Shown here piece after piece: positions 19,046 to 52,682 of a stretch of 64,000 bases of DNA. Within the stretch, counting starts at the first letter, position 1; the number at the start of each line of letters is the position of its first letter. The stretch is from Cenococcum geophilum. Lineage: Eukaryota. Under the pieces are notes generated by a model. The model was not told the origin of the DNA. It did no database searches and saw nothing but the letters and a program-made list of their open reading frames with translations. The DNA lies in the NCBI GenBank assembly GCA_050273025.1, contig CP158635.1, positions 62,001-126,000 of the forward strand. The letters run 5' to 3'. The translations under genes and the position numbers were made by a program.

Positions 19046-19439
19046 TATCAGGATTTTTTTTAAGTATGTTGTTGCAGTTTATGGCAATTTGCTGCGAAAC
19101 GTGCAAAACGTATAATTTAAGTAGTTATATATGGTCCTTACTAAGTTGCGCAAACCACACATTCCGTAATAAGTTTTTAGCATTTATAAGCAAACTGCGG
19201 CAAAATGCCTAAACGCCAAACTAATACCAGTATCTCCTACTCTGTAAATAAAAAGCGTACTATTAGTACAATATATATAAACTACTCCAATTATATGTTC
19301 TATTTACTATTTTAATAATATATAAACTATACGGACTATATAGTATTTACATCGCGTAATAACCAAGTTACTATATATATAATTTTTTATAGATTGCTAT
19401 AGATTGCCACAGATTGCTATAGATTGCCTTCAAAAATAT

Positions 19440-21860
19440 ATTTATATTATAACTACTATATAAAATAGCTACTTCTCTAAACCTATAATAGACCACAAAG
19501 CATTTGCCTTGCCTAGCCCCTTTTCTACCCTTGTTCTAAAGATATCTAGATCCTTATTATTAAATAGTATAGACTTAACCCCTTTTCTAATAGTATACTA
19601 AAGACTTACATTAGGTTTAGCCCTAAGCGTCTTTCTAAATAGCTTAACTGCAACTATTAACTGTTTGTAATTCTATTAATATAGTATATTAATAGTACGT
19701 TTCCGATTCCGTAATTTTATACCTTTAAAGATAAGCTTATAGATATTATTTCCGAAATTATTACCAGCGCCACTATCCTTATCTATATCTTCTCCACTAT
19801 TTATACTGGCATTATTACCTGTGTCCGCTCTATTATATTTGTTACTACCCTTTCTTATACTATTCTTATTATCCCTATTGCCACCTAGAGCTATATCCGT
19901 TCCATTATCCGCATCGCCATCTTTATCTATATTAACTCCACTATCTCTATTACAACACTTATTTATATTAATCCCGCTATCTATACCGCTATTAGGGTCG
20001 CTAATATCGTTAGGCCTACTACCTTAGTAATTAGTACTGTGGTCAGTTTAATTAGGCGACATATTATAGGGTATATTAGGCTTAGTAACAGTACTAGAAG
20101 GGCGGAAGGTGTCTAGGTTTAAGGAAAGGGACGCGTTATATACCTAGATATAAGTATTAATCCAGAACTATTATTATAAGTAGTTATATACCAGTAAAAG
20201 TATATTAAAGCGCTACTTATTAAATCCTGCGTTATAGTTAGAGTCTAGGTTAGAAAGATTATTAAGACTATATTTAAATAGATTTGGAATTACTTATATA
20301 GTAGAGTTGTTACCATATATAGTTACTTAAAGTCTCTTTAAGATGCCCTGTTATAAAAGCCCTAAAATCCGGTTCTAGCGCTCTATTAACTAATCTGCCT
20401 ATATAGCCTTTATCCGTTCCTATATAGCTAATATTAGAGTTAGTTACGGTATAGCCTAGATAGTTAGAACGAGGGTAAAGAAAGAATAAATTACTGTTCA
20501 GTTTGGCACCTACTTTAAGCTTTTATTAGATAAAACTACTACTTTTCCGTTTATTAATAACGTGGCGGATTATTATATAAATTAGTGTAACAGCCCCAGG
20601 GCTAATTAGGCGTAGAAAGTGCTATATATCTATACTAAACCCAAATCGCCACTTTCCCTTAAAGAATAACTTAGAAAGACTAGCTATAATAACCAGTACT
20701 ATAAAGCGGGATTTCTCGCCCTATAAATAGTTAGGAGGGTACCAAGGTAATATAGCTATGCGTACTATCTTAAAGTATTAAAAGTCATTAATATGGAGTA
20801 GCTCTTCTACTTTATTAATTATTTCCTACTTAGAGAGATTTCTAAATAAGTACTTAGCCTTTATATAATCTTATATATGCCTTAACAGGTAAAACCAGAA
20901 CTCGCTAATGCTATTATATATCTATTTTATGTTAGTATATATAGAAGTAATAAGAGGTAGCTTACTATATAATATATTAATGGTAACGGCTCTTATATAG
21001 CCTCGCTAGAACCGTCGCCTTTAAAAACCCCATTATACTCTACTGCTTTATCCTATATAAAATCTATCGTCTTTTCCAGAGTTATTATATTCCCTTCTAG
21101 CTATAGTATAAGAGAAAGACCTTTAGGAGCCTTACCTAATATTACAAATATTAGAAAGAAGCGCACGGCAGCTTTTACTATTAGTTTATCCGTAGGTTTT
21201 AATTTAGGTTTACTGCTATATATTACTCCTTACTATCTTCTAACTGCATCTATACTATATTAAGACTTCCGCGGTTTTTTACCGCGTATAGGCGCTATAT
21301 AAAACGACTTAGCTATAGAGTTATCTTCAGCACTAGAGATAAGCTCTTAGGTAAAGGGATAGTAGCATTAAAGCCGCTTATTAGGGCGATTTAGGACTTA
21401 TAACTACTATTAAAGTATTAGCGGGTATAAAGGGATAGAGTCTATATATATAGATTAAGAGATTCTTTATCTGAACTCTGCTGGAGTTGTTAACAATGCG
21501 CTCTTCCCTAGGGTATTAGGCCTCCATCTTCTTTAGAATTGCTATTTATATTTAACTAATATTTTAGGATACCATCTCTAGATACTCTATCGCCATATAT
21601 AGCCGTCTACTAAAGTTAGCTGCATACTACCGTATATATACTATTTATAGTACTTTAGCCTAACTACCGTTTGTGTATACATTTCTAGATTCTTCTTACA
21701 CTAGTAGTACTATTTCTTTTACCTTTACTTTAGTCGTAGGTATATATTAATATTTTAAGCAGTTATATAGAGGGTAGTCTATACCTTATTCCCCTTAAAA
21801 ACTATAGTTATATTCTTTTAAAATAGTAGAGGTTAGTAAACCTTTGGTATAACTAATATA
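19440..21860 (-). pseudogene. RIP-degenerate ORF of the Plavaka element, unknown function, with a D/G-rich low-complexity segment
   Basis: Long codon-like reverse-strand stretches (EIPLYKHWLL.LVFL...GAVTLI..IIRHVI); DG-rich tract ~19750-20030; boundaries approximate. Confidence 0.4.
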
Positions 21861-22699
21861 GGAGAAGTTAAAGAAGTTAATAAAGATATAAAGATAAAGT
21901 ATAATATTTTTAAATTATATATTTGCCGGTATAGATACAGTTAATAAAATAAAGGAGTAAAGGGGCAGATTTTAATATTCTGCTAGAGAGCTTAGGCCTA
22001 TTACCAGCCTATTTAGGGTAAATTATAACAGATTGCCGTATTATCTTGCCGTTAGATGCGTAATATTAAGAATTCCTACTAATAAGCAAGCACTAGAGCT
22101 AATCTTTACGGGTAAGAGCGTTATAACTGCCTATAAAAACGTAAGAATTTAACCAATTTATATAGATATGGCTAACCTTTTCTGGCGATTTAGTAGGTTA
22201 ATACTACTTAAGCAGTAAGTGCTTAATAATTCTCTTCCCTCGTTAAGACGTACTTTAGAGCTTCTATTTATACCTAGTTAGCCTATAAATATACCCAAGA
22301 CGTAGAGTTAGTTTAATCGCGCTATTTCCGCCTTTTACTACCTAAAATCTCCCTTAGAGTATATTAGTTTAGGCAATAAGCTAATAAAGTCGTTTTATGT
22401 TTAAAACTTAAGGAGAGCTTTTATAGAGGAGCAATATAAGGCTATTCTATATATTAAGAAGCGATAATCGTAAAGATTGGCTATTAATTTAGCCCTAAGC
22501 GTTAATAGAGTTAATATACTCGATTGCGAACAGATAGAAAAAGCTCAGACAATAAAGGTAGAGATTATTACGAAAATTAAGCCTATTAAAGAAAAAAGTG
22601 CAGTAAATTAGAAGAGAAAGGCAAAAGAGGGGGGGGTTATTATACTACTCTGCTAATATAAAATCCGCTAAAATACGTATAGCTAGGCAGCCTCTTACT

Positions 22700-25600
22700 C
22701 TAACGAGCCTATCTACTACTTAATTTACCTATATATCGGATATACCGCCTCCGCCTTTAAGCCAACTAACGGCTTTTTTAACTTCTTTCTATCTTGCCTT
22801 ATTTTATAGCTAATTTGCCTAGATTTCTAGAGGTTAAATATACCGGATTCCCTATTAATTACGTTAGCCGTTTTTATTTTTATTTTTGTTCTAAGGCCTC
22901 CTATAAGTTAATTAAAAGCTTAGTTTTAGATTTTTATTTCTTTACAAACTTATCTACGCGTATGCTATTAATCTAAAGAAAATCGTTATTATAGAATTGA
23001 TTGTATATATCCCAATCTGTATACAAGTTTATTTAGAATGTTCTTCTTTTATCTAGCGAAGTTGGTATTAGTTATATAGGTCTCTTAATATAGGAAATGT
23101 TATATATTTAGTGGCCATCTAAGTTTTATCTATTTTACACTATATTTATAGGAAATCGTTCCACTTTAATTATCCCATTAAAAGGATTTACCTTGCCTCT
23201 ATTATATGGACGGAATAGCTTAAAAAGTGCTCTATAGTATACTTAGTATCTACTATTTTCATCTATATAATTTAAGTCCTATACTAATACCAGCAATTCT
23301 AAACGGGTAGCCCGCGTTCCCTTTATTCTATCTAGTGCATTCTTATATTTTTATATAAGAACTTAGTCCCTTTATAAGGCAGTAATCTGCATCTAGACTA
23401 GGTTATAGCGTGCCCGTACTTTATATAGTCGATTAAGATTACGGGAGTCTTTACCGCGTCGAATATAGCATATTATAAAGTAATAAATACTAATAGGTAA
23501 ATCTTATACCTAGGCTGCATCCCTTTTAAGGCGCTTAACGTCTAAATTTATTGCTTATATACTATTAACTCGCTTATAACATTCCCGTATAAACAAGGCT
23601 AGTTTTATAATAAATTTATTAATACCTAGCCTAGTCTAAATTTCGCAGGCTCTGCGCTATAAATTTAGGTTTATTCCGCATATAGAAAGCATTTAGTTAG
23701 TTAACTGGCAGTAATTCTATCTATACGGCTTATCTGTTAGGTTAACTATGCCTAATAATAATATAATGTATAAATCTTCTATAGTATTAGCTGCTAGTAT
23801 TAGCTTTATATTTTCCTATAGCTTTATCTCTTATATTACTATAGTATTTATTAATTCCGTATTAAGATAAATTATTTACTCTTTATACCCTTTACGCTTA
23901 TTTAATCTTTAATAGAAATTCTTTTAAGAAATATATGCCCTTTCGCTATACTCTGTTATAATTCCTATTAGGGCGCCAAATATATAAATTATCTCCGGAT
24001 AGTGGGAAATTGTATAGAGTTTAGGTATATTAAAATTAGGTAGGTTTTTGTCATCAGGTCGGTACGGTAAAAACGCCTCTTTAGTTTTATCTATTTAATA
24101 TAATGCAGCTTTAAGATATTTAATCGTATCTTTATTATATAATTTATATTCGGCTAATAATGTAAAGTTAACTATAGCATAAATAAATAGCATTGCCCCC
24201 TTATACCTATATAGTAACGGTACCACAACTAGTACAATCTAATAAAGAAGGGACTTATACATCTTTCTAGTCTATTAGCTTAACTCTATAAAGTTATTCC
24301 ACCTAATTATACCCTTAAAGGGTTTAACCTTGGCGAATTATGCGGTTAGAAGATGTTTTACCCTATCCTTAGCAGATAATAGGGTTTTTATACCACTTTA
24401 ATTAGTTATTAAAACCCTCCCTTTTCCTTTCTTAATATTAAGCAGTAGTGCCTAAAGCTAGCTTATTAAATACTTTATAACGCCTTTATATAGTTAATAT
24501 AATAAATTAGGGGCTATTATAGCGTATATATCCGCTATATAATAGGACTAAGTAAAATTTTAAATTAGCCTAATATACTTAGGGTCGCTGCGATCTAGCT
24601 ATAAGTTTTACTATTATTTAAGTTGCTTAATAGTTAATTTATACGTCCGTCGCGGCTATTTGCCGGATATAGTGCTTAGTAGGTTACTTTATTTATAAGG
24701 CGGTATATAATATATTATATAGTATTGCCCTAATTTTACTCCTATTAATATAATCTACTTTTTATAGTCTGCTATAAACCTAGTAAGTATAGGGTAATAT
24801 TGCCGGATAAACCTATCTACGTATCGCATTAGTATACCCCGCCTAGTAGCGCGTTTAAGGGCTAGTTTTTATATTAACTTAAATACTTACATACTACTAA
24901 GGTAAATACTTACGTTTAAACATAATACTTATTATTTAATAGTATGCATCTAGTTTGTTTATCCGGTTACTTAGTAAGTCTATAGGTATATAACCTAGCA
25001 GAAGCATTACTGGCCTGCTAGCTATACGTTAAGTCTTTAATAGGATATTAAGTATTATAATATAAACCGGATACGCCTTTTTATCTCCGGATAGTATAGT
25101 TAGCTTAGTTTAGTCGCTACTAGGTATTACCATAATAGCCGTCGTACTATTAGGTAATTAATCTTAGATCTTCTATTAACGGTTAGCTGTATATGCCTCG
25201 TTATATACTTTATTACCTTTTATATTATCTTTAAATAGGAAATAACTGATTAGGAAGGCCACTACGCTAAGTATATTACGGTAGTATATCTTTAGGTTTT
25301 TGCCATATATATTAAGTTCTATAATTCGCCAGCTCTTATTGCTTATACCTTTAGAAATAGAATATAGTTTTATCTTAACTTCTTTTGTATTTTAGTATAA
25401 TATATATCCATCCCTTATATTTTTAATATAGGGGTCTTATAGCCACGCGTTTATTTCTTTTACTAATGTACTATTACGTACCTACTAGGCAACTTATGCC
25501 TATTCTACAAAGCTTATAAAAGGATAGAATATATTATTATCTTTATTTATTCCATTTACTAGCTGGCTAGGCCTTAGTAGGTAGTTATAATCTGCAGTAG

Positions 25601-27884
25601 ACTGCTAATTAGAGTTCCCCTCCGGGTAGCTAAGCAGGGTTCCTATATAGCGGCCAGTCACTTTATAATAAGTTTAGGTATAAAAGATATTTAAGGTAGA
25701 GAGGCTTATTACCGTATAACTGCGCGTTTTAGTACTAATTGGTTATTCTACTAGTGCTATATAGCTTAGCTCCTTTGCTAATATTAAGCCGGTATTTCCT
25801 ATAATAGTTAGTAAAATATTTTTAATAGCGGTGTTAGTTGCTATAAGGTCGTGTACCCATTATTCTATAGTAAATTTGTCGTCTTTATATATATCTGCTT
25901 AAGCCTAAATTATAGGGTAACGTGTTCTGCGGGCAAGCTGCCCATACGGGCATCCTGCCCACCTGCCCCACTACCGAGGGCAAATAATGCGAATTACTCA
26001 ACCACAAATAATTGTATTTAGTGTAGCTATCTACTAGCTAGTTGCCTGCCGTCTAGGACACGTACGTGCCGTATGTTCTGTTGATTTGCACATGCTGCAC
26101 TTGCATAGGGCTCGTTACAGTCGCTCTGCCTCTGCCGCTGCTGCCCCTCCTGCTATACCTTGCTAAGCAGCTTGTGCATAAGAGGCCCCTTCTGCTCCTA
26201 ATAGAACACCTCCTCTAGCTATATACGTGCGCTTCTTTGCCCTCTTCCTTTTCTGGCGGTGGTTTTCCATATGTAGCCTCTCATTTTCAACTGCAAGTAG
26301 TATAGCGCTTAACATCGCCATTTCACACCCCTTAACAAGCTGGCTAAGCGCTTACTCTGTTGGACTTGGTGGGCTATACGTACGCCGCTTAAGACAGCGC
26401 CTTATTAGGGCTGTTTGCTGTTATAATTCAGCAATATTGTGAGGTGTTTCAGCGGTCCAGGATACATTCGATGGTGGACGAGGTGGTGGTGTCTGATATT
26501 CAGTATGTAGCTGCGATAGCACGCGATCGGGGCTGTATGGAACAAGACCAGTAGCTGCAAATCCTGCCTGTATATTGTTTTGATGCAGCACTATTTGTCT
26601 AGCCTGCCTATACAGCGGTAAGAATTCGTGTTTATCTATATAATTAACACCGCGACCCATAAGCTGTTCGACAAGGTGTCCATAGGCCTGCTTTAGCGGC
26701 GAGAAACAGCCTATATCAAGAGGCTGCAGTATATGCGACGAATGCGCTGGCATATAGATAGTAATAATCTTACGATCTAAGCAGAATTGATTGAATTCGG
26801 CGTTAATATGGCTGCCGTGGCCGTCCAGTATAAGCAGCCGATGCGTGCCAACAGTGCGATCCTTTGTATACTTATGGAATAGATTTAGCCAGGTAAGGCC
26901 AATCTCATTTGTTGTCTAGCCATTCTTACTAACACCAATCAACCAGTCGTGTGGAATAATATCGTTCTCGTACTAAGCAGCTTAATGCATTACTGCTTCA
27001 AAGATAACCAGCGGTGGAATAGCGCCCCCCAATGCATTAATACACTCGATAATTGTAACCCATTCTCGATTACCTGGCTATACTATTCTAGGCCGGCCAG
27101 CCCTATTAGTTCCAGTAACAACCTTTACAGTTGTAATAACGCCCATTTAAAAGCCAGTCTTATTAAAATTCCAGGCATCTTTATTAAGAATCCTATATTA
27201 TATCTTTATATCTTAAACGCGTTTAAACTAGCCCCAGATAAGCACAGGATCCTCGCATTTAGCACGCTGATAATCGTATTTGCGATTCCATTTAGATTAT
27301 AGGTCGTCGTGGCGCTTAATAAAGTCGTATACCCATCGCTCACCAACTGGTGGTGAGCTAGGGTGCTGGGTAGCTAGCAGGCTAGCCATCTGCCGTACGG
27401 TCGCGATTCGTGGTGACATACCGCGTTGATCCATTGATAGAATCCACTGCTTAAGGCTCTCTTCTTGTGCTAGTGTAAGACGGCGATTTGGTGCAATAGA
27501 ATCGCGTTTTAGTTTAATGCCCTTAACGCGTAGCCGGGCGGTACTCCGGGGCACATCGTACGTAGTAGTAGCGGCTCTAAAGCTTCGAAATTGGCCTTGC
27601 TTGTGGGCTTGAATAGCTAGATCAATTCTGCCCTCTTTGAAAAGGGCTTCTTGCTATTGTGGTGTAGGCATTAAGGTGGTAGTTAAGCAGCGCGTCGCGT
27701 GTATGATGGGGTGGGCAGGATGCCCGCATGGGCAGCTTGCCCGCAGAACACGTTAGACATTATCCTATTAGTTAAGATAGTCTATACTTATAGCTTTATA
27801 ATATAGCTTATATCGCGCTAATCTACCTAAGGTAGATATTGTATGCTTACATTTAGGGCACTAGCGATTTATTAAGCCTATTAT
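22700..27884 (-). pseudogene. Plavaka transposase with N-terminal C2H2-like zinc finger, interrupted by a pogo element
   Basis: RIP-corrected motifs CPKCKHTISTSGGLARH (~27860), SSDQTKLT.LSGDKKAYPVY, GILMRC.DG.IR.C.PILA.F.ADY.EQ, SQWTGK, IRAIVDF, NFNIPKLH.ISHYPE.IR.FGAP...TTEHSERAH, TDWDIYNQFYD; one intron near 24860-24910. Confidence 0.85.
25920..27753 (-). mobile_element. Fot1/pogo (Tc1-mariner) DNA transposon, 1834 bp
   Basis: ~44-bp TIRs (acgtgttctgcgggcaagctgccc...), TA TSD at 25918-19 and 27754-55. Transposase ~27671-26031 with HTH (LTLAQEESLKQWI), LLILDGHGSH, MPAHSSHILQPLDIGCF and a C-terminal CSMCKSTEHTARTC knuckle; RIP stops. Confidence 0.95.
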
Positions 27885-28099
27885 AATAATAACAAATGCG
27901 GCTCCTTATATTGTTATTAAGATTAGATAGGTATACCTAAAAAGGGCAGTAAATTGTATAACTAATCTAATGGCCGTAATCTGCTGCTAGCTATCCTAAT
28001 AACTAACCATAACGCCTTACTTCTTTTAAATTGTAAGTTAAATATACTAAGTAGCATATTATCCTAAGCGCTAATAGTATATAAAGCAGTATTATATCC

Positions 28100-29270
28100 T
28101 ACAGTACCTATTATAATTAATTTATAACCACCAAAACATTTATAAACCTTTAATCCCGCGTCCCTCGCTAACACTATATCTACCTAGCATAGTAATAATA
28201 TAATTAGATAGTATATATACTATAGAGGAGGCATAGTATAAGTCTATTAGTAAAACTCCTAGGAAGGATAAGCGGATTATATCCGGGTTTAGTATTAGCA
28301 GCGCTCGTTTATATAAGATTAAAGGGGTAGTTAAGGACATTATAAATAAGAGCAATATAATATCTATACGCTTCTAAGACTAAATAAATTACGCCATTTA
28401 AAGTAAGATTATAGCCAAAATCGTTAATTAAATCCTAGAGTCTAGTAACGCTCTAGTTAAATAGACTAAGGAAGTGGCCTAATATCTTCTTACTCGTACT
28501 TAGTTAAATATGCGTAAGAAAGCTAGCTGGGCTAGTGCTAAATCAGGACTTCGGTATAGAGCTACAAATTCTACTATAGGGTACCCTTATATAGAGCCTT
28601 AAAACGTATATTAATCTCTTTTACCTAAATATGTTAATAAATATAACGTTTAGGGTTTTATAATCTATATATATCGAGATCTAGAGAATATACCACGGTT
28701 TATAATTTATACAGACTTAAGTGCTAGTCTACTTTAAACTAACTTAGTAAAAGGGTGGATAAGTCTTTTAAATTTTCCTAAATTTCTTAATATTGCCTAG
28801 GACGCTAGAGTTAATCTAAAGACGGAGGAGTTATAGGTAGATATACTAATAATTATACTAGTTTAGAATGTGGGACTTTTAAAGTATATAATATAATAAA
28901 CGCTTAAAGCCTCTAAGGATATAATTGTTTTTGTAGTTGCGAATATACGCGGTATATAGTAGTAGTCCTTATAGCCTTAAATCTAATACTCTTTAGAGTC
29001 TTAATTATTCACTAGGAGTCCTACTTAAAAGGGTATATTAAAGCGGTCTTAATTAAGCTAAAACATTGATTTTAGGCAGGTAAAATATCCTAGGCGTATT
29101 AACCCTCGTTCTTAGATTACATATTCTAATATACTTCTAACTCCGCCTATTATACTAGTTATTTATAAAGAATATTTTTTATAACTAGAGGAAGCATATT
29201 TAGCGGCAATTTACTATAGCAAATTGCCCTTTAACGCGTGCGCGTTATATTTCATTAGTAAGAGTATTTA
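28100..29270 (+). pseudogene. RIP-degenerate ORF of the Plavaka element, unknown function, divergent from the transposase
   Basis: Readable frame RKDKRIISGF.ISSARL.EIKGVV...WTKEVA.HLLTRT..NMRKKASW after RIP correction; no family recognised. Confidence 0.35.
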
Positions 29271-29573
29271 CCTTAGGCTTATCCACTTTACTTTATACTC
29301 TTTACCTCTACTACCTTAACCAACTCTTGCACGGCGCCTCTACACAACATTAATTAGTTAATTAATTAGTTTAACCGCTAATTGCTGCTTTAAGCTACGA
29401 CTTGCTTCCTAAAACTACGGCAATCTGCCTAGCAGATTAACTCTTATAATTGGTTTATCTTACTTACCTACTTTAGACCTGCACCTTTACTAAACACTAA
29501 CTAGATTCTTCTACTTTTATATAACAACGCTCTACTCCTTCTTTATTCTATCTTAGTATCTTTATATATTATA

Positions 29574-32500
29574 ATAAAGGACTCGGATATTATAAAGGGA
29601 TAGAATATTAATACTTATCGCCTTAAGGAAATTAAGAGATACAATCCTAGATAACACATAAGAGGCCAGGCTTAAAAAATCCACGTTTTATACTCCAAAG
29701 ATAAAGTGCCACGCGATTAGTTTATTTAAAAGATTTCTAGCGACTTACCTAAGAAGGAACGTGCTTTAAACAGCTAGTTTAGATAGGCTATTATTCCTTT
29801 TATGTTATCCTAGAGAACTAATACTACTAAACGGCAAAATAATATAAAGTTAGAACCTAGAAGTTAGAGTTAAACCTAATTTAAACCTATAATAACGCTA
29901 GTATATACATTTGCTTCCAAGCCAATCTCTAAATTACACGGTTTTACATCACTAAATAAGCCGTTCTTACTTAAAAATATAACCTTTTAGTTTTAAAGAA
30001 TAAACCTAATTACCTAAAAGCACTGTAGAGCTTTATATAGTCTATAAATTTTAAAAGGCAATATAGAAACTCTAAGAGTTAAAGAAATTAGTCTCTGGCT
30101 ATTTTAAGAGGTTATAGCATTAGTAGGTTTTATTTTAGACAAGGATAAAATTACCTAGCTTAACGTGGTTACTAATAAAGAGGTTTATATTACCTAGTAA
30201 AGGCTATTATAAGCCGTATTTTAGTAGTATATACTATATAACGGGGGCAGAGTGGAATGTATACTTAAGAGTACGGATTATAAGTTCCTTTAATAATATT
30301 TAGCTATCTATATACTAATAATTGCAGCTAAGCATTTAATTATAAAAGTACCGTACTAATTACTAAATAAGTAGGGTATAAACCCTCCTAGAATTACCGA
30401 TACTCTAACCCACCAGTATTCGCGCACTAAGGCCGCACTTAAGAAACGGTAGAAGATTACGCCTAAGCCGATCTACAAGCACTTAGATATTAAGTTTATT
30501 AATAAAGACAGCGAGAATAAGAGCGATGCTTTACCTATCTTATTAATACGCAGCGGCATTCTAAGTCTACTAAGTCTAAAGAAACGTAATTATAAAAGGG
30601 AGTAACCTACTAGAGGTATTTATGGGTAAACTATAGTAAACCGCGGTAAGCCGCTAGGAATAGCTGTAATAATCCAATTATCTAGCCTATAGATAATCCT
30701 AATAATAATAGAGCACGGTAAGGGTAATTATAATACTCCCTAGAGCAAAACTACTTTATATTCCTAATTAGCTCAGACTCTATATAATAATTTAAACTCT
30801 ATATCCGTAAAAGCTTTCCTTAGTAAAACTATAGAAACTAATGCGATCTAAGATACCTTAGGTAAAAATGCGCTTAAGAATAATATAATCTAAGCTAAGG
30901 AGATATAGGTTATAATGCCTATTGCGTAAAGGTATAAGTATATAGTTATATAAAGTACATCTTAAATTAGACTAATATTAGCTCTTTTTAGATTTTAAGA
31001 GGCCGCTATAACTAAAGCAGGAGGTAAGGTTTAAGTAGTAAATATATAAACGTTCGGCTAAGCTATATAGAGTTCCTAAAAAGGCCGTCTTAATAAAGAA
31101 CCTGGTCCTTATTCCTAGTAATAGGGTTTAAATCTAAAGTTTAAATCATTCCTATACTAGCTGTATAGCGTATCTAAGATATTCCACTAAGAGCGCACGC
31201 AACTAAATAGTGGTGTTTTTGCTAATGGTATAGGAATCAAAAAAATCGTAACCGCGTACTTAACTATTATTCTTAGTTACCACTATACTATAAACCTAGA
31301 CAAAGTAGCCACTAATTAAGCGGCTAGGAATACGAATTAGTATCTATAGAAGGATAACTAAACTAAAGACGCTAAGTGTCCTAGCTAGGACAAGATACCT
31401 TTTCTATACTTATATATAAATTAAAACGCTATATCTATAATATAAAGACAGTATAGTGCAAATTTAGTTATTATAATTCCAAGTATAATTACTAGTTAGA
31501 GAGATAATTATATCTTATTATTTAAGGACTTTACGCTTATAATAAAAGAGTAGACGCTACTACGGTTTATAATGTGCCATAAGACAGAAGATATATCTAA
31601 AGGAATAGCGCGACTAAACCCTTAGGAATAGCTTTAAATGGGGACTTTAGGGGACTAGTTAGATCACGATATAATAAATAATAGTCAGACTTTTATGGGT
31701 AAAAAAAAACGCCCTACTTATAGTTCTTTAACGGCCCCCTATAGAAGTATACAGACCATTATAACTACGCTCTTTAGCAGAATCTTATAGGATAAGTTTT
31801 ATAATAAAAAAAATTAAGAAACTTATATTAACTAATTCCTTTATTCTTAAAAAAAAAGTGGTACCGCTATACCTAAGATTCTTTACCTAGGCTATTTCTA
31901 GCATAGTAATAGAGAATAGTGTTATAGATATATGCTGGTTTATTATAAGCGCCCTTAAAGATATAGATTGGGCAACCGCTTAAGCTAACCTAGTATTTTT
32001 AGAAAATATACGTTTGCGGAAGTTAATAAAATAGCTAAACTATAGACCCAATTTTAAAGCAGGGAAGGAGTAACCCTAAAAGTGCCTTGCAGTTTACGAT
32101 ATATAAAGAATTAGTTAAGGTTAGTGGCCTAATTCCCGTAAATTTTCTTATTCGCCGTAATAGGGATACTATTAACTTTAATAACTAAAAACTAAAAGCT
32201 GTCCCAGGCGAGCTCTAAATTTAATATATAAAGTATAATTATAAAACTAAAGAACTTAAATTCCTATATAGTATAGAAGGTGCAATAGTGTTAGAAATAG
32301 AAGAGGTATTTTAGCAGAAAATAGTCAAATGGAGAGAAGATGGTTCTCCTACTGGGAAAAAACTAGCACAAATGGCCAGCAGCTCCTTAAGCAGCTACTT
32401 TACGTGCTATAATGCAGTAATAACGCCCGGGTTACTTTTATAGAAGGATAGATTTAATAAGGATCTTCCGGATAATAAAAAAAATAAACGTCTAGTCTAA

Positions 32501-33030: not shown

Positions 33031-33161
33031 TTATAGTAGTGATATATTTTTAATCCTTTTAGCGCGGAATTAGGTAATACGCTAGGTAGTTTACTGTAAA
33101 TTCTTTTTTAGTGGAAGAAGTATAACAGACTATTATTTTTAGAATTAGGTAATAGAATGGG

Positions 33162-39344: not shown

Positions 39345-39349
39345 ATAGG

Positions 39350-40510
39350 CAGTATTCTGCAGTTTTACAGTTAGTAAAAGGCAAATACTAGATTTTTTTA
39401 TTATAGAATTAAGTAATATACTCGGCGATGTGCCGCAGTTTTACGGCTAATGGAAGGTATATACTAAGTTATTTTTTATAAAACTAGGCAATATATCGGT
39501 AATATACTGCAATTCTTTTATTAATAAGAGAAGTGTACTATTTTGCTATTTAAGGAACCGGGTAATACGCGGGTAATATATTATAGTGCTCCGTTAATAA
39601 AAGAAGCTGCTAGCTTGCGATATGGGAACCAGGTAATATGCGAGCTAATATTTAGAATACTCTACTTATAAGAGTAGCCTATAGCTTACGATATAGAAAA
39701 TAGGTAATATATAATCGGATATATTACAGTGCTCTATTAATAAGAGATATCTGCTAGCTTATAATATAGGAACTAAGTAACGTATAATTAGATATATCGT
39801 AGTGCTCTATTAATAAGTGGCGCCTATTAGTTTACTATTTAAGGATCTAAGTAATACGCTAGGCTATATATTGTGGTGCTCTATTAATATAGTAAGTCTG
39901 CTAGCTTATAATATAGGAACTAGGCAATATACGAGCTAATATATTAAAATAATCTACTAATAGGCGACGACTACTAGCTTGCAATTTAAAGAATTAGGTA
40001 ATATACCTAGCAATATACGGCAACTTCGTACTTAGTAATAGAAGTTTACTAGCTTACCGCTTAAGGAACTAGGTAGTGTGCTAGGCAATATATAGCAATT
40101 TCGCGCTTAGTAATAGAAGTTTGCTAGCTTATTACTTAAAGAACTAGGTAATATACTAGGCAATATATAGCAATTTCGCGCTTAGTAATAGAAGTTTACT
40201 AGCTTACCGCTTAAGGAACTAGGCGGTATGCCAGGCAATATATAGCAATTTCGCGCTTAGTAATAGAAGTTTATTAGCTTACCACTTAAGGAACTAGGCG
40301 ATATGCTAGGCAATATATAGCAATTTCGCGCTTAGTAATAAAAGTTTACTAGCTTACCGCTTAAGGAACTAGGCAATATATAGGCAATATATAGTAATTT
40401 CGCGCTTAGTAATAGAAGTTTATTAGCTTACTGCTTAAGGAACTAGGCGATATACTAGGCAATATAAGGCAATTTCGCGCTTAGTAATTAAAGTCTACTA
40501 GTTTACTTTT
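39350..40510. repeat. 75-bp tandem repeat array downstream of SNF2 copy 1 (starts ~33060, split by the Gypsy insertion)
   Basis: Units start at 40021, 40096, 40171, 40246, 40321, 40395 and 40470 (caatttcgcgcttagtaatagaagtttactagcttaccgcttaaggaactagg...); more diverged units upstream. Confidence 0.9.
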
Positions 40511-40949
40511 TAAGGTAGTAATTATATTGGATTAGAGCTTCTGGCTAAAGTTATAATTAATATAAACTTTAGATCTAACTATTTAATTAGTAAAGCGGAG
40601 TAAATATAAAGTTAATATAGCTCTTAAAGCTTTAAATCTATACCTAATTTAAAATATAGCTAAGGAAAAATAAATTACTAGTAACTCTATGCTTAATATA
40701 AGGCTAATTAGTAACTCCTAAAGCTCTACTACTAACTCGGTGTCTATTAAGGGGTGCATTAGCTATAAAATCTAGAACACCCGCTTATTCTACTGCTGTT
40801 CTCTTTATACTAATATACGGCTTATTCTAGATATATACCCTAATCGCGATACTATAGTCGCGTTTATATACCTTATAATATTATTATCTTAACCTTCTTA
40901 ATTACGATAAGCCTGTTTCCGGGGGGTTTTTATAGAAGGTAGGTAAAGA

Positions 40950-42620
40950 TATAGGAAACACCGATTGTAGAAAGGATGTTAGTTAAGGAGGAGGCTCTAT
41001 TACTATACTAAAGTAGGAAGTCGTAATAGAGGCTTAGTAGTATAGAGGGGCTCTTTTAAATTACTTACTAACGTTAATTACGCATTAATATACAAAGTTA
41101 AATCTAGAGCCTTATTCTGGAGCCTTACTAAATAATTAACTAGATTATAAATTTAAATAAGCTATAGTAGTAGCCGCTACTAATTACAAAACGGGTAATA
41201 CTAAAAGGCGTATAGATTAAACAGTTATAATATAGAGGCGATTTACAACCGAATAGTGAGGAGCTTTAAGCTCTATATCCCTTTGTCTAGTAAAAGAAAC
41301 TTTTTATATTAGGCGCTTTAGACGCTCCTACCTAGGTTAGTATACTGCGGGCACCCTAGCTAGCGTGATTTTATTAGCAAGCCTTACTAAAACGCGTTAA
41401 CTTATAATGCCGATAAAATGCTACGGAAGGCCACTACCTATATATATATATATTTGAGGAAGTTAGGCAAAAAGTCGTAATATATAATATTATAACTATA
41501 GGTTTCTACCCTTCCTTTATTAACCAGCTGCCGATTATATAGGATAATCCTCCATTAAAGTCTTCCCCTGAATTACTACCACCTATCCGCTTTATACGCG
41601 TTCTTAATATTAATAAAGATAAGCTTCCCTTTTAGATCTTACTACTAAATATTATCTATCTATTTATTACCTATTCTCTGCATTAGAACCAATTTCCCCT
41701 TAACTTAACTATATACCAGCCCTTAACCTATTTTTAAAGTAAATGTCGTAATAGTATATATACCAATAAGGAGTTATAGATATCTTACACTAATTGGTTA
41801 TTACAGATAAATAAAAACCCTAGGTATACAGCTACCCTAGCTAAGCGCACTAAGCGTCCCTATATTAAAAAGGCGTTATTAAAGAATAGAGATAGGACTA
41901 CTAAGCTAGCTCTAAAGCCGCGAAAGAAAAAAGCGGCGGATAGTTGCTAAAAAGAGATTAGAGGGTTTCTAATTAAGTAGGAGAATAATAGTAAGGTAGC
42001 TAAAGCTATAAAAATAGCTTAGCTACCTGTTAAGATGCCTCTACTAACCCATTCTGTCCTACTAGCCGCTGGAAATGCCGCTAGACGTGGTCTAGAGAGA
42101 ACTAAGTTAAATAAAAACAGCGCCGCGGAGATGGCTGTTATAGAAACTAGAAAACTATAAAAGAGAGACCTCTTTAATATTATAAGTTAGATGATCAGTT
42201 ATATAAAGGAGGGGTAAAGTATTTTACAGACTACGTCACCCGCTAATTATTAGAATATTAAGAGTTTAAAGACAAAAATTAAGGAACTTTAAAAAGCTAA
42301 GAAGGCTTAAAATATATCAATCGTTAATCTAATCTGGGACGCTTAAGTAATAAAGTAGGACCATCTCTAAGGTTATAAAACTATATTTATAACTAACCAA
42401 AGCGCATAATAATGTAAATTAGAGAAAGGTAATGTTTTAAAAGCTTTTGGTAAAGGACTAGCTTAAGGTTATAAGGGAGGACGTACTATATACGCCAAAT
42501 AAGGTGTATTAAGTGCTATAAGTAGTTAAACGGTTTAACTAGCGGCTGTTTAATATAGAGGATTAATTAAGGGCGGTAGAGGAGGGCTTAAAGGAGGCTA
42601 TAGTAAAGGCTTAATTAGCT
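40950..42620 (+). pseudogene. RIP-degenerate ORF between the two SNF2 modules, unknown function
   Basis: Codon-like stretches (IEAIYNRMVRSFKLHIPLS...ALQTLLP; K/E-rich segment later); no family recognised. Confidence 0.3.
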
Positions 42621-45600
42621 TTACCTAGTCTCCTATTATAAAATAATCAAAATAATACGTAAATTCTATACTTAGCTAAGTTATTACCTTTTTATATAAG
42701 TAGCCTAGGTAGGGTTTACAAAGTTTAATAAACTAATAATTTAGTTTAGTTCTTAAATCTTAAAGATTATAACTATATAAGACTTATACTACCTAAGGCA
42801 ATCTACTACAAAATACCGCTAAACTTAGTATTCTGCGTATTCACTAGAACTTCTTAATTTACCTTGCTATTAATAAGCATTAAATGACAGCAATTTGCCT
42901 ACTAGTATTACTTAACTTTAATATCCACTTCCCCTAACTCTTTACCTCTACTACCTTAACTAACTCTCGCACGGCACCTCTACGCGATATTAATTAGTTT
43001 AACCGCTAATTGCTGCTTTAAGCTGTAACTTACGCCCTAAAACTGCGGCAATCTGCCCGGTTAATTAATTCTTATAATTAGTTTGTCTTACCTACCTACT
43101 TTAGACTTACACCTTTACTAAACACTAATTAGATTCTTCCGCCCTTATATAGCAACGCTCTACTTCTCCTTTATTCTATCTCGGTATCTTTATATATTAC
43201 TATAAAGAACTTAAATATTATAAATAGATGGAAAATTAATGCTCGTCGCCTTAAGGAAATTAAGAAGATAATCTTAGATAGTATAATAGAGGCTAGGCTT
43301 AATAAAGTCGTGTTTTATACTGCTAAAGATAAAATACTACGCGATAACTTTATTTAAAAGGTTCTTAGCAACTTACCTAAGAGGGAAGGTGTTTTAAAGA
43401 GCTGGTCTAAAGATACTATTATTACTTTAATGGTATCTTAGAGAACTAATGCTATAAAACGGTAAAATAAGTTAGAACTTAGAAGTTAGACTTAAACTAA
43501 ATTCAAACCTATAATAACGCTAGCGCCTACATTTACTCCTAAGTAAATCTCGGAATTACTAGGCCCTACATTATTAGGTAAGCCGCTTTTACTTAAAAAT
43601 ATAACCTTCTAATTGTAAAGAATAAACTTAACCACCTAAAACACCATAGAGCTTTATACGATTTATAATATTATAGAAGCTAACACAGAAACCCTAATAA
43701 TTAAAGAAATTAGTTTCTCGCTATTTTAAGAGATTATAGCATTAGTAGGGTTTAACTTAGACAAAGATTAAATTATATAGGTCGATATTAAATCCCATAA
43801 GGAGGCTTATATTACCTAGTAAGGGGCATTATAAGTCGTATTTTAGCGATGCATACTATACTATAGAAGTAAAGTAAAATTTATACTTAAGAGTACCGAT
43901 TATAAGTTCTTTTAATAACATCTAGCTATTTATATACTAATAATTACAGCTAAGCATTTAATTATAGAAATATTATACTAAATACCGCGTAAGTAAAGCA
44001 TAAACCCTCCTAGTATTACCAATACCCTAATTCGCTAGTCTTTACGCGGTAAGCCTATATATAAGAAACGGCGGAAGACTACGTCTAAGCAGACCCGCAA
44101 GTACTTAGAGTACTTAGATAATAAGTTCATTAATAAAGACACTAAAAGTAAGAGCGATGCTTTATTAACCTTATTAACGTACAGCAGCATTCTAAGTTTC
44201 TTAGGTTAGAAGAAACGTAGTTATAAAAGGAAGTAACCTGCTAGAGTATCTAAAGGCAAATTACGGCAAGCTACTAAGGACGGCCGTAGTAGTCTAGCTA
44301 TTTAGCCTATAAGGGGTCCTAACAGTATAGAGGAGAACGAAGACAATTATAATGCTCTCTAAAGCGCAACCGCTTTAGATCCTAAACTAGCTTAACTATA
44401 GGTTATAACTATAGATGATCTAACTAGTAATATTATACAAATTTCTACAGAAGATAATAACCTAGAAGAAGAGGCTTTTAAAGATATAATAAACGAAGCT
44501 AATAGGGAGATAGAGGCAGCTAATTGTATTAAGTAAAGGTATAGGCATATAAGCATATAGAGTACATCTTAAATTAGACTAACGTTAGCTTTTTTTAGAT
44601 TTTAAGAAGCCGCTACAGCAAAAGTAGGCGGTAAGGTTAAGAAAATAGAGCAGTAGATATATAAACGCTTAGCTAAGGTATATGGGGTTTCTAAGGGGGC
44701 CCTTTTAGGGAATAATATAGTCCCCGTTCCCTATAGATAGGGTTTTAATTTAAAGTTTAGAGCGTTCCTATACTAGCTATATAGTGTATCTAAGATATTC
44801 TACTAGAAATGTATAAAGCTAAATAATAGGGTTTTTATAGACGGTATAGGGACCGGTAAAATAGTAACCGTATACTTAACTATTGTCCTTAACTACTACT
44901 ATGCTATAAACCTAGATAAAGTAGCTACTATTTAAGCGGCTTAAAATGCTATTTAATATCTACCAAAGGGCTATTAAGCTAGCAGCGCTAAGTGTCCTAG
45001 CTAGGATTAAGTGCCTCTACTATACTTATATATAAATTATAACGCTATATCTACAATATATAAATAGTATAGTGCTAGCCTAGTTATTACAGTTCTATAT
45101 ATTATTACTACCTAAAGAGATAATTATATCTTATTATTTAAAGATTTACCACTCGTAATGTAAGCGTAGGCACCGCTAAGAGTTGTAATATACTATTTAA
45201 TAGTGGATGTTTCTCCGGGTATAGAGCAGCTAACTTTAAATAAGTGGCTAAAAATAGGAACGTTAGGAAACTAGACCGCCTATAATACTTTAAATACTTA
45301 TTAGGCTCTTATAGATAAAGCAAAAACCCCTTACCTATAGTTCTCTAATAGTGTCCTACTACTTAGAAAGGGCAATTCTTTAGTTAGTACCCCGGCCGCC
45401 TTAGTAATAAGATTTATTATAATTATAATATTTAAATGCCTAAAACAGCGTATTATTAACAACTTTATAATTACTAAAAGTGTTTACCGCTTCTTATTTA
45501 GCGGTAAGCAAGAAGATAAAGGTTAGCAGTTAGTTAAGACTACGTTTTTTAGTAGGGTTTTATAGGATAAGTTTTATAACAAGAAGAATAAAAAGACTAT

Positions 45601-46231
45601 AGTTAACCAATTTCTTTATTTCTATAAAAGTACTATACTAAAACGCCTTAAATTCTTTATCTAGGCTATATTAGGGACTCTAATAGAGAATAGTGTTATA
45701 GATATATGTTTGTTTATTATAAGTGGCCTTTTAGATCTAGATTAGGCAAGCGCCTAAGACAATAACATTTTTAAAAAATACACGTCCGTCAAAGTTAAAA
45801 AAAATAGTAAAGCTATAGAGTTATTTTTTAAAATAAGGAAAGAGTAACCCTAAAGGGGTCTTATAGTCTACGGTATATAAAGAATTAGTTTAAGTTGGCG
45901 GAGAAATACTTATAAACTTTAAAATTCGCTATACCTTAAATACTATTAGCTTTAATAGAAAAAAATTAAAAGTTATTTTAGGCGCGCTCTAAACTTACTA
46001 CCTAAACTATAAGTATAGAACTGTAGAAATTGAATTACTATAGGGCATAGAGAGTGCAATGACGTTAGAAATAGAAGAGGTATTTTAGTAGAAAATGGTT
46101 AAATAAAAAGAAGATGGTTCTCTTAAGGGGAACTAATCAGTATAAATAGCCGGTACCTCCTTAAGCACCTACTTTACGTGCCGTATTATAGTAATAATGC
46201 CTAAGTTACTTTTATGGAAGGATAGATATAA

Positions 46232-48384
46232 TGTAACCGACTACCGACACTGTGCTGAGACACAAGATTACCGCTTGGAAGGATCCAAGACTGCGTCAAC
46301 GCCACCCTATATATTGATTGCAGATCAATATTGCTTGCAGATCACTGTTCCCATTTCAGTTGCCTATCACCTTTTTATGTCTTATTTCCTCCACCTTCTT
46401 CGTGTATATATAGAGGCTTTAGAGCTGCATTTACAATTAAGTCGTTTACTCTTTCCTACACACTGCAAAGCTTATAGTTATAAGCCCGGATCGCACTGCC
46501 TGCTAAGCAATTACCTAAATCGCACTACCTGTTGCACTATCTTAATCTACTACCTTATTTAAGAAGTCACTACTTCTACCACCTTTACAAGTGTATTGAG
46601 CTTCTTCCAGGTACCTCTCTTGTACTTATAATTACCCTTAAATATTAAACGAACGGATAATTAACGCTAACGGACAATTAACGCTGACGGACGAACAAAC
46701 TAATGAATTAAATTAAAGCTTCGGAACGTTAAAATAAGGTTCTACTAAGACGCCAATTAGACCCTGCCTAACCTATTAAAATCCTAAAAATAACAACCAC
46801 AAATGAATTAAAAGTTAATCTCATCCTTAACGAGCCATCTAATTGGATCCTATAGTTCTTTATTATTTAAGATATAGCCAAAACGAATAAGATATGGCGA
46901 TATATTGACCCGTCCAAGAAGAAAGATAAGCTTCCAACGCTAGAACTACTGAAACGGCCTACACCAACGGACGTACGACCTATGGCTATATTAATAACCC
47001 AGCTAGAACAAGACCAATTCGCTATCTATAACTAGCTCTATTCCGAATACAAAGACGATCTCCGTATACACGAGAAGCGAGAATAGGCTATCAATAATAT
47101 CAGCAACTATATCGTTCGCTCGATGTTAGTAGCCTACCTTCCCCTTATTAACGGCCTAGATTCGGTCTACGAACGGCTTAAAGCACTTAAGAAAGCGCTT
47201 ACCCCTACCACCTTAGGTTAAAAGCACGACGTCCTTAATTAATACACGGCTTTAAAAGCCTATAATATAACACAGAGTATTAATAAATGGTTAAGCAGCT
47301 GGCGGAACATCTATAAACTTGCTAAGCAATTAGACCTACCAGACGTGCAAAGCTTTAGGCCTTACTACGACTTCGTTCAAGCAATTAAGCCTATCTCTTC
47401 TAGCTTCGTAGGAGCTCTAGAAGTAGACCTTATTCGCAAGGAACGCAAGGGTAAAGTAGCCCTATCTATTATTGATCTTATTAAGGAATTTAAGGAGCAC
47501 TATTATATGCAGCAACAAGCGTCTCCTACCACTACTGCTAACTACTCTGCATTTGCAACATTTTAAAATAATTCCCCTGTCTTACTAATAAAGATATGCC
47601 TCTGTAGTAAAGAACACCTATTTTAGAAATGCCAATATCTAATTAAGAGCCTAAGACCCTATGGGTGGGTACCTAATAAGAAAATATAACAACGAATTAA
47701 TAAAAAGCTTATAAAATATAAGAGACTTGCTGTTGCTATTAAGAGAGCATAAAAGGAGGCTTCCTAGAGGATGCCTACTACCACTATTAATGATTAGATT
47801 ATTGAGATCTGATTTCCTCTTTAAATACAGTCTCCTAAGAGGCTAGAGAGGACACCTCTTTAAATATAGTCTCCTAAGAGGCTAGAGAGGACATATCGTT
47901 AAACATAGTCTTCTAAGAGGCTGGAGAAGATACCTTTTAAATATAGTCTCCTAAGAGGCTATGGAGGATATCTCTTTAAACACAGCTCTATATCCAGAGA
48001 TATAAAGCTAGGAATAACCATCTTACCCTATTCCTTTGCTACTCCTAATTTGTATCCAAATTTCCTATTTTTTGATATAGTCTCCACCTTCATTTTTATT
48101 TTCTATAGCTTTAACTACACCGTTAAATCTGGGGGGGTGTATAACCGACTACCGACACTGTGCTAAGACATAAGATTACCGCTTGGAAGGATCTAAGACT
48201 GCGTCAACGCCACCCTATATATTGATTGCAGATCAATATTGCTTGCAGATCACTATTCCCATTTTAGTTGCCTATCACCTTTTTATATCTTATTTCCTCC
48301 ACCTTCTTCGTGTATATATAGAGGCTTTAGAGCTACATTTACAATTAAGTCGTTTACTCTTTCCTACATACTGCAAAGCTTACA
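46232..48384 (+). mobile_element. Gag-only non-autonomous Copia-type LTR element, 2153 bp
   Basis: 245-bp LTRs at 46232-46476 and 48140-48384; TSD TATAA; gttat(g)agccc primer-site motif; PPT ggggggg; gag ~46790-47810 (ILNEPSNW..WF..I...A....IWRYIDP; CLC.KEH...C); no pol. Confidence 0.88.
47817..47985. repeat. ~39-bp tandem repeat, about 4 copies, inside the gag-only element
   Basis: ctctttaaatacagtctcctaagaggctagagaggacac repeated. Confidence 0.85.
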
Positions 48385-49139
48385 TATAATAAGGATCTGC
48401 TAAATAACGACAAAATTAATATATAAGCGAAATTTCACGCAAAATTAATTAAATCTCCTATTAGAAGCATCTTAGATAAAAATAAGAAGGAAATTCTTTA
48501 CGGTAACACAAAATTTAAGGCGCTTTTAGTTATCTATAAAGAAGTTATATAATTAAAAAACGTCGGGGGGTATTATAGTAAGGTTATTATTGGCACTGAT
48601 TTTCTAACTATTAGGGCAGTATATATAGCAGTAAGTAATAAAACACTCTATTTTTTTACCTTTTAATAGTAGCTTGCTTAACTGGAACTCTAAGCTAATA
48701 CTTATTTTAGGCCTTGGTTACTAAATATAGCGAGGACGCTGTTATATATCTCCCTGGAGGAATATTGCTAAAGTAAAAAAACTATATTATCTATAACTTA
48801 TAGAAGCAGCTAAGTGGACTATAGATTCTTTTATTACCTCTAAAGGCTATTATAGAGGGTATTACCCTTAATAAGGTATACTTTATTATGCTTATAGAGC
48901 TTAATCTATTCTTTAGTAAATAGGAATAGTTTATATACCACATTTACTAAATTAGCTAAAAAAAACCCTCTTATAATAGCATATATTTTGTATAACACGG
49001 CTTCCTGTATTAAGGTTAAAATTCTAAATAAGTATAAGTTTAAAAAGACCGCCGCGGATAAGATATTAGATGTAGATATAAATAAGCCAGGGAGTTTAAA
49101 GGAGTAGCTAGTAGAAGTGCTCTAGCGAGGTATTTTTAA

Positions 49140-49930
49140 TATTTTAGCACAGAATTAGGTAATATGCTAGGCAATTTGCCGCAAAGTTTTATCTTATAAA
49201 AGAAGTATACTAGGCTATTATTTTAAGAATTGGGAAATATAGTAGGCAATATACCGCAGTCTTATAGCTAATGGAATGCATATGCTAGGGGTTTTTTTTA
49301 GTGGAATAAGTAATGTTTCTTAGTAATATACTACAGTCTTACAGTTAATAGAAGGCATATTAGGTTATTTTTTATAAAATAGGGCGATATATCGGTAATA
49401 TGCCGAAATTCTTCTATTAATAAGATAAGTTTACTATCTTACTATTTAAGGAGCTAGGTAACGAGCGACCGGATATATTATAGTGCTCTATTAATAGGCG
49501 ATAACTACTAGCTTACTATTTAAGGACCTAAGTAATACGCTAGGCGATATGTTATAATGCTTTATTAATATAATAAGTCTACTAGCTTGCGACGTAGGAA
49601 CTAGGCAAATACGAGCTAATATATTAGAATATTTTACTAATAATAGGCGTCGCTTACCAGCTTGCAATTTAAAGAATTGGGCAATATACCTAGCAATATA
49701 CTGTAACTTCATGCTTAGTAATAGAAGTCTACTAGCTTACCGCTTAAAGAACTGGGCATATACTAGGTAATATACAGCAATTTCGCGCTTAATAATAGAA
49801 GTTTACTGGCTTGCCGCTTAAGGAACTAGGCGATATGCTAGGCAATATACGGCAATTCTATACCTAATAATTGGAGTATACTAGGTAATATATAGCAATT
49901 TCGTATTTAATAAGAGAGCTCTACTAGCTT
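49140..49930. repeat. 75-bp tandem repeat array downstream of SNF2 copy 2; subterminal to the Plavaka right end
   Basis: Same unit as 39350-40510 with fewer copies. Confidence 0.85.
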
Positions 49931-49987
49931 ACCCCTACGGTTATACTTCCTATACATTAGTTATAGTAGCTAGTTATAGCGGCTAGG

Positions 49988-50203
49988 CATTAGGATTTTT
50001 TTTAGGCACGTTGTTACAGCTAAAAGTTAGGGTCTGCTTAACTTAGCAATTTATAGCGATTTACTACAAATACGCAGGCTACCCATATATGTTTATAGCA
50101 AATCGCTATAAATCACCGCAAATCGCCAAAATCGCGACTTAAGCGAGTTAAGCAGACCCCAATTTTTAACTGCAATAACGTGCCTAAAATTTTTTTCCTA
50201 ATA
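49988..50203. repeat. Palindromic right terminus of the Plavaka element (TIR in both orientations)
   Basis: cattaggatttttttt aggcacgttgttacagctaaaagttagggtctgcttaac pairs with gttaagcagaccccaatttttaactgcaataacgtgcctaaaatttttttcctaata. Confidence 0.88.
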
Positions 50204-50205
50204 CT

Positions 50206-52677: not shown

Positions 52678-52682
52678 ATACC

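Follow-up and report, generated by a model that had tools for sequence, protein, structure and literature searches.

A probable PlavakaB-type DNA transposon, inactivated by repeat-induced point mutation, within a Gypsy element of Cenococcum geophilum

What kind of mobile element split a Gypsy retrotransposon in the fungus Cenococcum geophilum, and what did it carry when it moved? The question is raised by 64,000 nucleotides of contig CP158635.1 (assembly GCA_050273025.1, positions 62,001 to 126,000 of the forward strand; hereafter the window, with positions counted from its first letter), in which a block at 19046-50203 interrupts the RNase H region of a Gypsy element. An earlier note on this DNA had read the block as a giant gene-carrying transposon with a Plavaka transposase and two SNF2 helicases, possibly of an undescribed family. 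Our analysis indicates that the block is probably a single copy of a PlavakaB-type cut-and-paste DNA transposon, with a DDE transposase of the CMCT clade, that was inactivated by repeat-induced point mutation (RIP).

AT-rich (GC about 0.31), the window has indices typical of RIP (TpA/ApT 1.4-1.9; (CpA+TpG)/(ApC+GpT) 0.25-0.7), except at 2-4 kb and 10-14 kb, where it bears genes, and in a patch at 26-28 kb. Comparison of the window with itself showed that the host Gypsy is divided into 15333-19045 and 50204-52680, and that a complete sister Gypsy at 33162-39344 (minus strand, flanked by a 5-bp duplication, ATGGG/ATAGG) is collinear with it in inverted orientation. Over 6,183 aligned bases the two are 88.6% identical, with 11.0% transitions, 0.4% transversions and 2 gaps. 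Host base 19045 pairs with sister base 35633, and host base 50204 with 35634. At this junction the host reads ...GACCCGGCT, the insert, then CTAAGTG, against ...AACCTAGCTAAGTA in the uninterrupted sister. Because CT stands on both sides of the insert (19044-19045 and 50204-50205) when compared with the sister, the target-site duplication (TSD) is 2 bp long. The insertion point corresponds to about residue 355 of the sister's pol frame, within both RT_RNaseH_2 (residues 289-384, E 9e-20) and RT_RNaseH (315-419). The collinear junctions thus bear out what had been claimed of this site, namely that the RNase H frame was split precisely, that the sister Gypsy supplies the empty site and that CT was duplicated. 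A 3-bp duplication (GCT), which the earlier note had held not fully excludable, was rejected: the base preceding the right CT is the final base of the terminal repeat, and a 3-bp duplication would spoil the symmetry of the termini. Small contigs from four sequencing runs (110-190 nt) were also mapped to this region at a likeness of at least 92%, the summed depths not being copy numbers. Twelve of them stop at 50204 (9 in run X1 and 3 in X7), and their loose ends continue as uninterrupted Gypsy across the site; they therefore represent further empty sites in other Gypsy copies.

The block ends in inverted repeats of about 35 nt, which read CATCAGGA once RIP changes are allowed for. The left terminal inverted repeat (TIR; 19046-19079, plus strand) is TATCAGGA-T8-AAGTATGTTGTTGCAG, and the right one (50168-50203), read as its reverse complement, is TATTAGGA-A7T4-AGGCACGTTATTGCAG. 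A 22-nt TIR pattern that tolerates C-to-T and G-to-A changes, with a mean expectation of 0.9 matches at three or fewer mismatches, matched without mismatch at 19058 (plus) and 50168 (minus) and with one mismatch at 50000 (plus). This third match indicates that the final 216 bp (49988-50203) form a hairpin, in which a second, left-type copy of the terminus starting CATTAGGA (49988-50021) faces the true right TIR. A locus on a metagenome contig (L008, one of the relatives described below) has its left boundary at the identical base, where it reads CATTAGGA, with unrelated DNA outside it. The three terminal copies in the window begin TATCAGGA, CATTAGGA and TATTAGGA; the first five bases are TATCA at 19046 and CATTA both at 49988 and at the left end of L008, and the final five bases, at 50203, are TAATA. 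Because the differences among all four copies are of the RIP type, every one of them C-to-T or G-to-A, the un-mutated terminus would be CATCAGGA, and the intact element would have had CATCA..TGATG termini. The pattern matches and L008 agree with the earlier correction of the TIRs to this form, and L008 provides a copy of the left boundary in different flanking DNA, as had been sought.

No additional termini were detected within the block by the TIR pattern or by local alignment of the terminal regions with the interior. Interior scores were 62 and 73 for the right terminus (shuffled maxima 64 and 65) and 88 and 87 for the left terminus (shuffled maxima 83 and 86), all of them within or just above the control range. 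A looser terminus pattern gave just noise beyond the four known sites. The arms of the right-end hairpin are about 58 nt long and both carry the CATCAGGA end; it has the appearance of a MITE-like derivative (miniature inverted-repeat transposable element) fused to the end of the block; it is without a TSD of its own (GG on one side, CT on the other), and variants of it are present in other sequencing runs.

The Pfam Plavaka profile (PF18759) matched positions 24463-25295 on the minus strand, stops being read as X, and both scores (53.3 and 37.8 bits) exceed the cut-off of 26.3. When the RIPed C-terminal half was used as a query, it retrieved a 656-aa protein, P0001, at 66% identity (E 4e-284), the window differing from P0001 by RIP-type substitutions; three more relatives were found at about 35% identity. 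A C-x-x-C and an H-x-x-x-H motif are conserved in P0001-P0004 (...HCTMCH... and ...KLHAISHYPE... in P0001, with H274 and H278 invariant). Metagenome contigs were then scanned with an alignment of P0001 and the three relatives, which yielded 190 matched stretches, 28 of them encoding relatives (L001-L028). By blastn, 12 of these 28 loci (L001-L012) belong to the same family as the block, at 65-91% identity.

The most informative relative is L001, a whole contig of 12,940 bp with a GC content of 0.45 and normal RIP indices, which is collinear with the window at 19372-25916, 27756-33161 and 39348-40500. Both of its transposase open reading frames (ORFs), of 400 and 667 aa, are open (6036-9270) and match Plavaka (E 1.8e-36 and 1.4e-30, 126.5 and 107.1 bits), giving a two-exon transposase of about 1,060 aa. 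Searches of the window with the L001 genes by tblastn (59-83% identity) placed homologues at 27905-22862 (minus), 21397-19472 (minus) and 28068-28956 (plus). The first of these is the RIP-damaged transposase of the block, of which 22862-25919 (minus) covers exon 1 for the most part and exon 2 completely, and 27738-27905 (minus) holds the first approximately 56 codons, severed by a pogo insertion. Thus the Plavaka assignment made earlier is confirmed by profile scores above the cut-off in both the window and L001, and other loci of the same family exist, one of which shares the left end. Since root and soil metagenomes contain an un-RIPed copy whose two transposase ORFs are open, activity of the family may persist somewhere in nature.

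The 16 more distant relatives (L013-L028) have just the transposase in common with L001, apart from part of an orphan ORF in 5 and a DUF6532 region in 2. Seven of them (L014, L018 and L024-L028) are distant Plavaka copies (35-38% transposase identity) in RIPed contigs that also contain Gypsy sequence related to the window's Gypsy, indicating that several Plavaka lineages coexist in these metagenome contigs. Cluster mates of the transposase, P0007 and P0008, were also noted on contigs of 14.8 and 16.8 kb.

Three younger elements are nested in the block. A pogo/Fot1-like transposon (25920-27753, minus strand; DDE_1 E 2e-29, and HTH_Tnp_Tc5) lies inside the 5' coding region of the transposase, with 46-nt TIRs that are 98% alike and a TA duplication, and is barely RIPed. 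The second is the sister Gypsy, and the third is a small long terminal repeat (LTR) element of 2,153 bp (46232-48384) with 241-nt LTRs that are 96.7% alike and a TATAA duplication. Empty sites are available for all three, since L001 is uninterrupted at the positions of the pogo element and the Gypsy, and a repeat within the block described below (module A) is uninterrupted at the position of the small LTR element. Once the three elements are taken out with their duplications, 20,976 bp remain, in accord with the net length of about 21 kb estimated earlier.

The pogo element has a GC content of 0.40-0.51, is nearly RIP-free and may belong to a recently active family. Un-RIPed L001 reads TG at its insertion site, so the element was probably inserted after RIP had made the TA. 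Relatives of the small LTR element, LTR-like and inverted, occur near 57.6-60.1 kb (57593-60072), and the element may represent a non-autonomous LTR family; at 58069-58212, within this LTR-related region, 12/24-nt units (TTAAGGTAGTCATTTAATCTGTA-like) are arrayed in tandem.

Two genes other than the transposase can be followed between the block and its relatives. Downstream of the transposase, positions 19472-21397 (minus strand) hold a RIP-damaged accessory gene that corresponds to three ORF pieces in L001 (tblastn, 65-72% identity), where a DUF6532 domain is recognized (E 6e-17); the gene is also present in the distant relatives L013 and L015. DUF6532 has been listed beside Plavaka among the domains enriched in some fungi (PMC8955403), the sole paper that a full-text literature search for DUF6532 found. 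Divergent from the transposase, an orphan ORF lies at 28068-28956 (plus strand); it encodes 296 aa in L001, and part of it is common to five distant relatives. A homologue search with the orphan ORF returned 3 proteins, all of the same family, and comparison of its un-RIPed version with a protein atlas gave a best score of 0.78, under the lead threshold. The DUF6532 gene and the orphan ORF are the conserved passengers of the element.

The block also contains short repeats in a characteristic orientation. CACTA-type elements carry transposase-binding subterminal repeats that are oriented oppositely at the two ends. At the left end of the block, four copies of TATAGATTGC (19388-19428, minus strand) present the hexamer RGCAAT in reverse, with 4 reverse occurrences at 19393-19423. 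Forward RGCAAT occurs 15 times in an array of 73-nt and 75-nt tandem repeats (array A, 39350-40515, plus strand, collinear with L001 positions 3-730) and 9 times in the right subterminal kilobase; the overall density on both strands is 1.5 per kb. Tandem units of 73-75 nt were delimited at 39522-40506 and 49407-49884. These arrays, together with the ORFs seen in the un-RIPed relative, correspond to the repeat arrays and unidentified ORFs that had been reported in the element.

What had been overlooked is that the 21 kb contains the same module twice, in diverged copies. Module A, together with array A (29280-33154 and 39346-40515), recurs as a direct repeat, module B and array B, at 42922-46232 and 48389-49884. 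Module A (29280-33161, plus strand) is decayed and has helicase-like motif strings (a motif I-like string at 31221) with no statistical family match. The first part of module B (42922-46231, plus) is its diverged paralogue, 76% identical to it, and over 3,125 bases the two show 26 gaps and a transversion share of 6.8%; the second part, with the 74-nt repeats of array B, spans 48390-49936 (plus). Transversion distances were 0.005 between module A and L001, 0.004 between module A and L008 and 0.005 between L001 and L008, against 0.068-0.071 between module B and each of these; that between the host and nested Gypsy copies was 0.004. Because 6.8% transversions separate the modules and 0.4% the Gypsy pair, the split between A and B is far older than the insertion and did not arise by duplication in place.

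The block is accordingly built of two parts. On the left, 19046-40515, which amounts to 13.4 kb without the nested elements, represents one copy of the autonomous family, and the right 7.5 kb consists of segment S, a 2.4-kb unrelated repeat (40516-42921), followed by module B with its arrays and then the right terminus. Segment S (2,406 bp) had no blastn or tblastx match in the 28 loci or in the rest of the window. When the contigs of the four runs were mapped to 40300-50800, between 4,673 and 8,933 small contigs per run were placed and each run covered all 30 bins, indicating that S-like and B-like sequence exists in many variants. Loose contig ends were seen before 42937 in runs X7 and X9. 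Contigs of runs X1, X5 and X9 jump 823-824 nt of S (41625-42447) between two AAGCTT hexamers; the copies of S thus differ by this piece, which was either lost by deletion between the short repeats or gained by a further insertion.

The two SNF2 helicases claimed as cargo correspond to modules A and B, that is, to two old and diverged copies of one decayed module. By eye, a single frame in both modules contains strings (LxPYQ..AV, GGVFADG.GTGK(T/I)V, LVI.IPS.I.SW and ILWDEFHNKKN) that resemble helicase motifs Q, I, Ia and II. The un-RIPed module of L001 reads GGVFADGVGTGKIV, LVIVIPSVITS-stop-RD and ILWDEFHNKKN. RIP-tolerant patterns for motifs III and VI gave no match. Six-frame Pfam scans detected nothing in 19046-33160 besides Plavaka and the pogo domains DDE_1 and HTH_Tnp_Tc5, and no family in 40400-46240; the in-frame module pieces matched none at E<=10, and the un-RIPed L001 module none at E<=0.1. 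No helicase was retrieved from the PDB sequences, whether the query was a single fragment (three searched) or a profile (two searched). A four-copy profile compared with 1.84 billion proteins gave 7 matches, all of them 41-239-aa fragments of the same repeat. When module A was read in a single frame (1,253 aa) and used in a word-based search for homologues, none of 7,999 scored candidates reached E<=0.001. The L001 module is broken into ORFs of at most 208 aa over three frames, while the L001 transposase is open. Each module copy has its own 1-nt indels, and the module is absent from the 16 distant relatives. The module may descend from a helicase gene, but it is not demonstrably SNF2 and did not function as a gene in the family's recent past.

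The following course of events is suggested by these results. The transposase would have bound at the terminal repeats and at the subterminal ones bearing RGCAAT, which are opposed at the two ends and amplified in the arrays, and would have excised the whole unit and integrated it by a 2-bp staggered cut; RIP would afterwards have destroyed all genes of the unit. Presumably the host Gypsy was inserted first and the Plavaka unit second. RIP would have come next, followed by the sister Gypsy, itself RIPed, and then by the small LTR element, whose LTRs are lightly mutated; the almost un-mutated pogo element would be the last to arrive. Regarding the unit that moved, we tentatively favour, at close to even chances, an origin of the right 7.5 kb from a diverged relative, so that the unit would be a chimera with compatible ends of two subfamilies. 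We also lean towards the view that the helicase-like module was already non-coding junk when it was moved.

Several observations weigh against this interpretation. The right terminus is known from the window alone, since 0 of the 28 loci extend to it, and its pairing with the family therefore rests on TIR similarity and the single duplication. No mapped contig spans the arrays, leaving the long-range assembly across them unverified, and the data do not separate a chimera from a 21-kb build shared by the whole family. In addition, one protein, P0026, retains a W where all four aligned module copies have a stop; with the Q/I/Ia/II-like strings in one frame, this means that the module may descend from a real helicase gene.

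The closest competitor takes the whole 21-kb build, from the transposase body through module A, array A, S and module B to array B, as the family's normal architecture, which arose by an ancient internal duplication and is present in every autonomous copy. We regard this as possible and nearly as likely as a chimera, to which we lean only slightly. It would account for the lack of a right terminus following array A, for the S-like and B-like variants throughout the four runs and for the fact that L001 stops inside the array, as expected of an assembly if arrays occur twice. However, only L001 and L008 reach module A and neither goes beyond the array, no second A-S-B copy was seen, S is matchless in the 28 loci, and X1 contigs that join array A straight to the tail of array B (40374 to 49759) give a weak hint of copies without S and B. 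These same joints, at a depth like that of a single locus, could also be taken to favour an assembly artefact, in which the arrays caused a false join that placed S and module B, foreign to this position, after array A and ahead of the right end; the two arrays consist of homologous tandem repeats, many related copies exist, and no contig bridges the arrays. We nevertheless consider an artefact very unlikely, because the arrays, at 65-80% likeness, have diverged too far to be falsely joined with ease, two matching misjoins would be needed for a false insertion, exact-match contigs of X1 cover pieces of module B and the right terminus, and the outer junctions are consistent with one duplication. 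Two complete elements, side by side or nested, would explain the doubled module and arrays and the left-type TIR copy at 49988, but the idea is hardly tenable: the block has a single left end besides the terminal hairpin, the hairpin lacks its own duplication, and the Gypsy resumes directly after 50203 with the single CT duplication.

Movement of the element with two functional SNF2 helicase genes as cargo seems improbable to us; the motif-like strings speak for it, and against it stand the failure of Pfam, PDB and protein-library searches to find a helicase, the empty patterns for motifs III and VI, the absence of the module from the distant relatives and its broken state beside an open transposase in L001. 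A bolder version of the chimera, unlikely on present evidence, would make the module the relic of an ATPase of the superfamily 2 (SF2)/SNF2 type that a Plavaka ancestor caught together with a binding-repeat array, as an accessory chromatin or anti-silencing device, with the 21-kb copy formed between compatible ends of two subfamilies. If that were true, Plavaka transposases would be able to mobilize composite DNA exceeding 20 kb in a fungus with active RIP.

Two features of the neighbourhood were also recorded. An ankyrin-repeat gene (10109-12399, minus strand; Ank_2 E 4e-33, Ank E 1e-24) lies in an island of normal GC that adjoins the repeat block on its left side. An inverted repeat of 154 nt (82%; 1-154 and 15084-15237) brackets a 15-kb gene island and may represent the ends of another element or two repeat copies.

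How does this element compare with known systems? Like Starships, the giant tyrosine-recombinase elements of Pezizomycotina, it is large and resides in a fungus; unlike them it has TIRs, a DDE transposase and a 2-bp TSD. No tyrosine recombinase was detected by the six-frame Pfam scans of 19046-33160 and 40400-46240, whose sensitivity is lowered by the heavy RIP; for the scanned stretches this agrees with the earlier view of a DDE-driven (Plavaka) cut-and-paste element distinct from Starships. Its DDE transposase is of a clade related to that of CACTA/EnSpm, and its subterminal repeats are likewise opposed at the two ends; it differs from CACTA/EnSpm proper in its CATCA-type termini and in a TSD of 2 bp rather than 3 bp.

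Sly1-1 of Neurospora crassa, which the earlier note had cited as an example of the Plavaka type, is described as an 11.5-kb CMC element, un-RIPed and potentially active, with a transposase, a divergent second gene of unknown function and a TSD of at least 3 nt (PMC4592977); the word Plavaka has no occurrence in that paper. By this description, Sly1-1 resembles the present element as an ascomycete element with a gene divergent from the transposase, in the position of the orphan ORF. Giant Plavaka elements of 17.4-19.1 kb have been reported from the red alga Bostrychia, with three accessory genes and internal tandem arrays (bioRxiv 10.1101/2025.02.11.637652). They and the present element are alike in their large size, in accessory genes beside the transposase and in internal tandem arrays, and the accessory genes and arrays of the algal elements also serve as the comparison for a captured ATPase. 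The hosts belong to different kingdoms, and none of the algal accessory genes PAG1-3 (methylase/SET, ParB-like plus oxygenase), as they are described there, was detected in the present element. Since giants of 17-19 kb with accessory genes and the PlavakaB signature (PMC12730594) have both been published, "possibly undescribed family" was too strong, and with the helicase cargo not demonstrable, the evolutionary interest of the locus is modest.

Kojima (2025; PMC12730594) defined PlavakaB by 2-3-bp duplications and CATCA..TGATG termini and placed Plavaka in the CMCT clade with EnSpm; the families described there come from Agaricomycotina, and some carry TET/JBP. The present element has a PF18759 match above the gathering score, the C(2)C and H(3)H motifs of the clade in P0001-P0004, CATCA..TGATG termini once RIP is allowed for and a 2-bp TSD. 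Because its termini and duplication fit this lineage, it is best placed as a further member of PlavakaB, neither CACTA proper nor a Starship. It is distinguished from the published PlavakaB families by a strongly RIP-mutated genome, by the absence of detectable TET/JBP and by a DUF6532 gene, 73-75-nt arrays and a length of about 21 kb. At this locus a Plavaka transposase is linked with a DUF6532 gene that is conserved and with subterminal repeats that are orientation-specific, and the locus provides a cleanly bounded PlavakaB-type example, with an empty site, a 2-bp TSD and both ends, outside the mushroom-forming fungi from which the lineage was defined.

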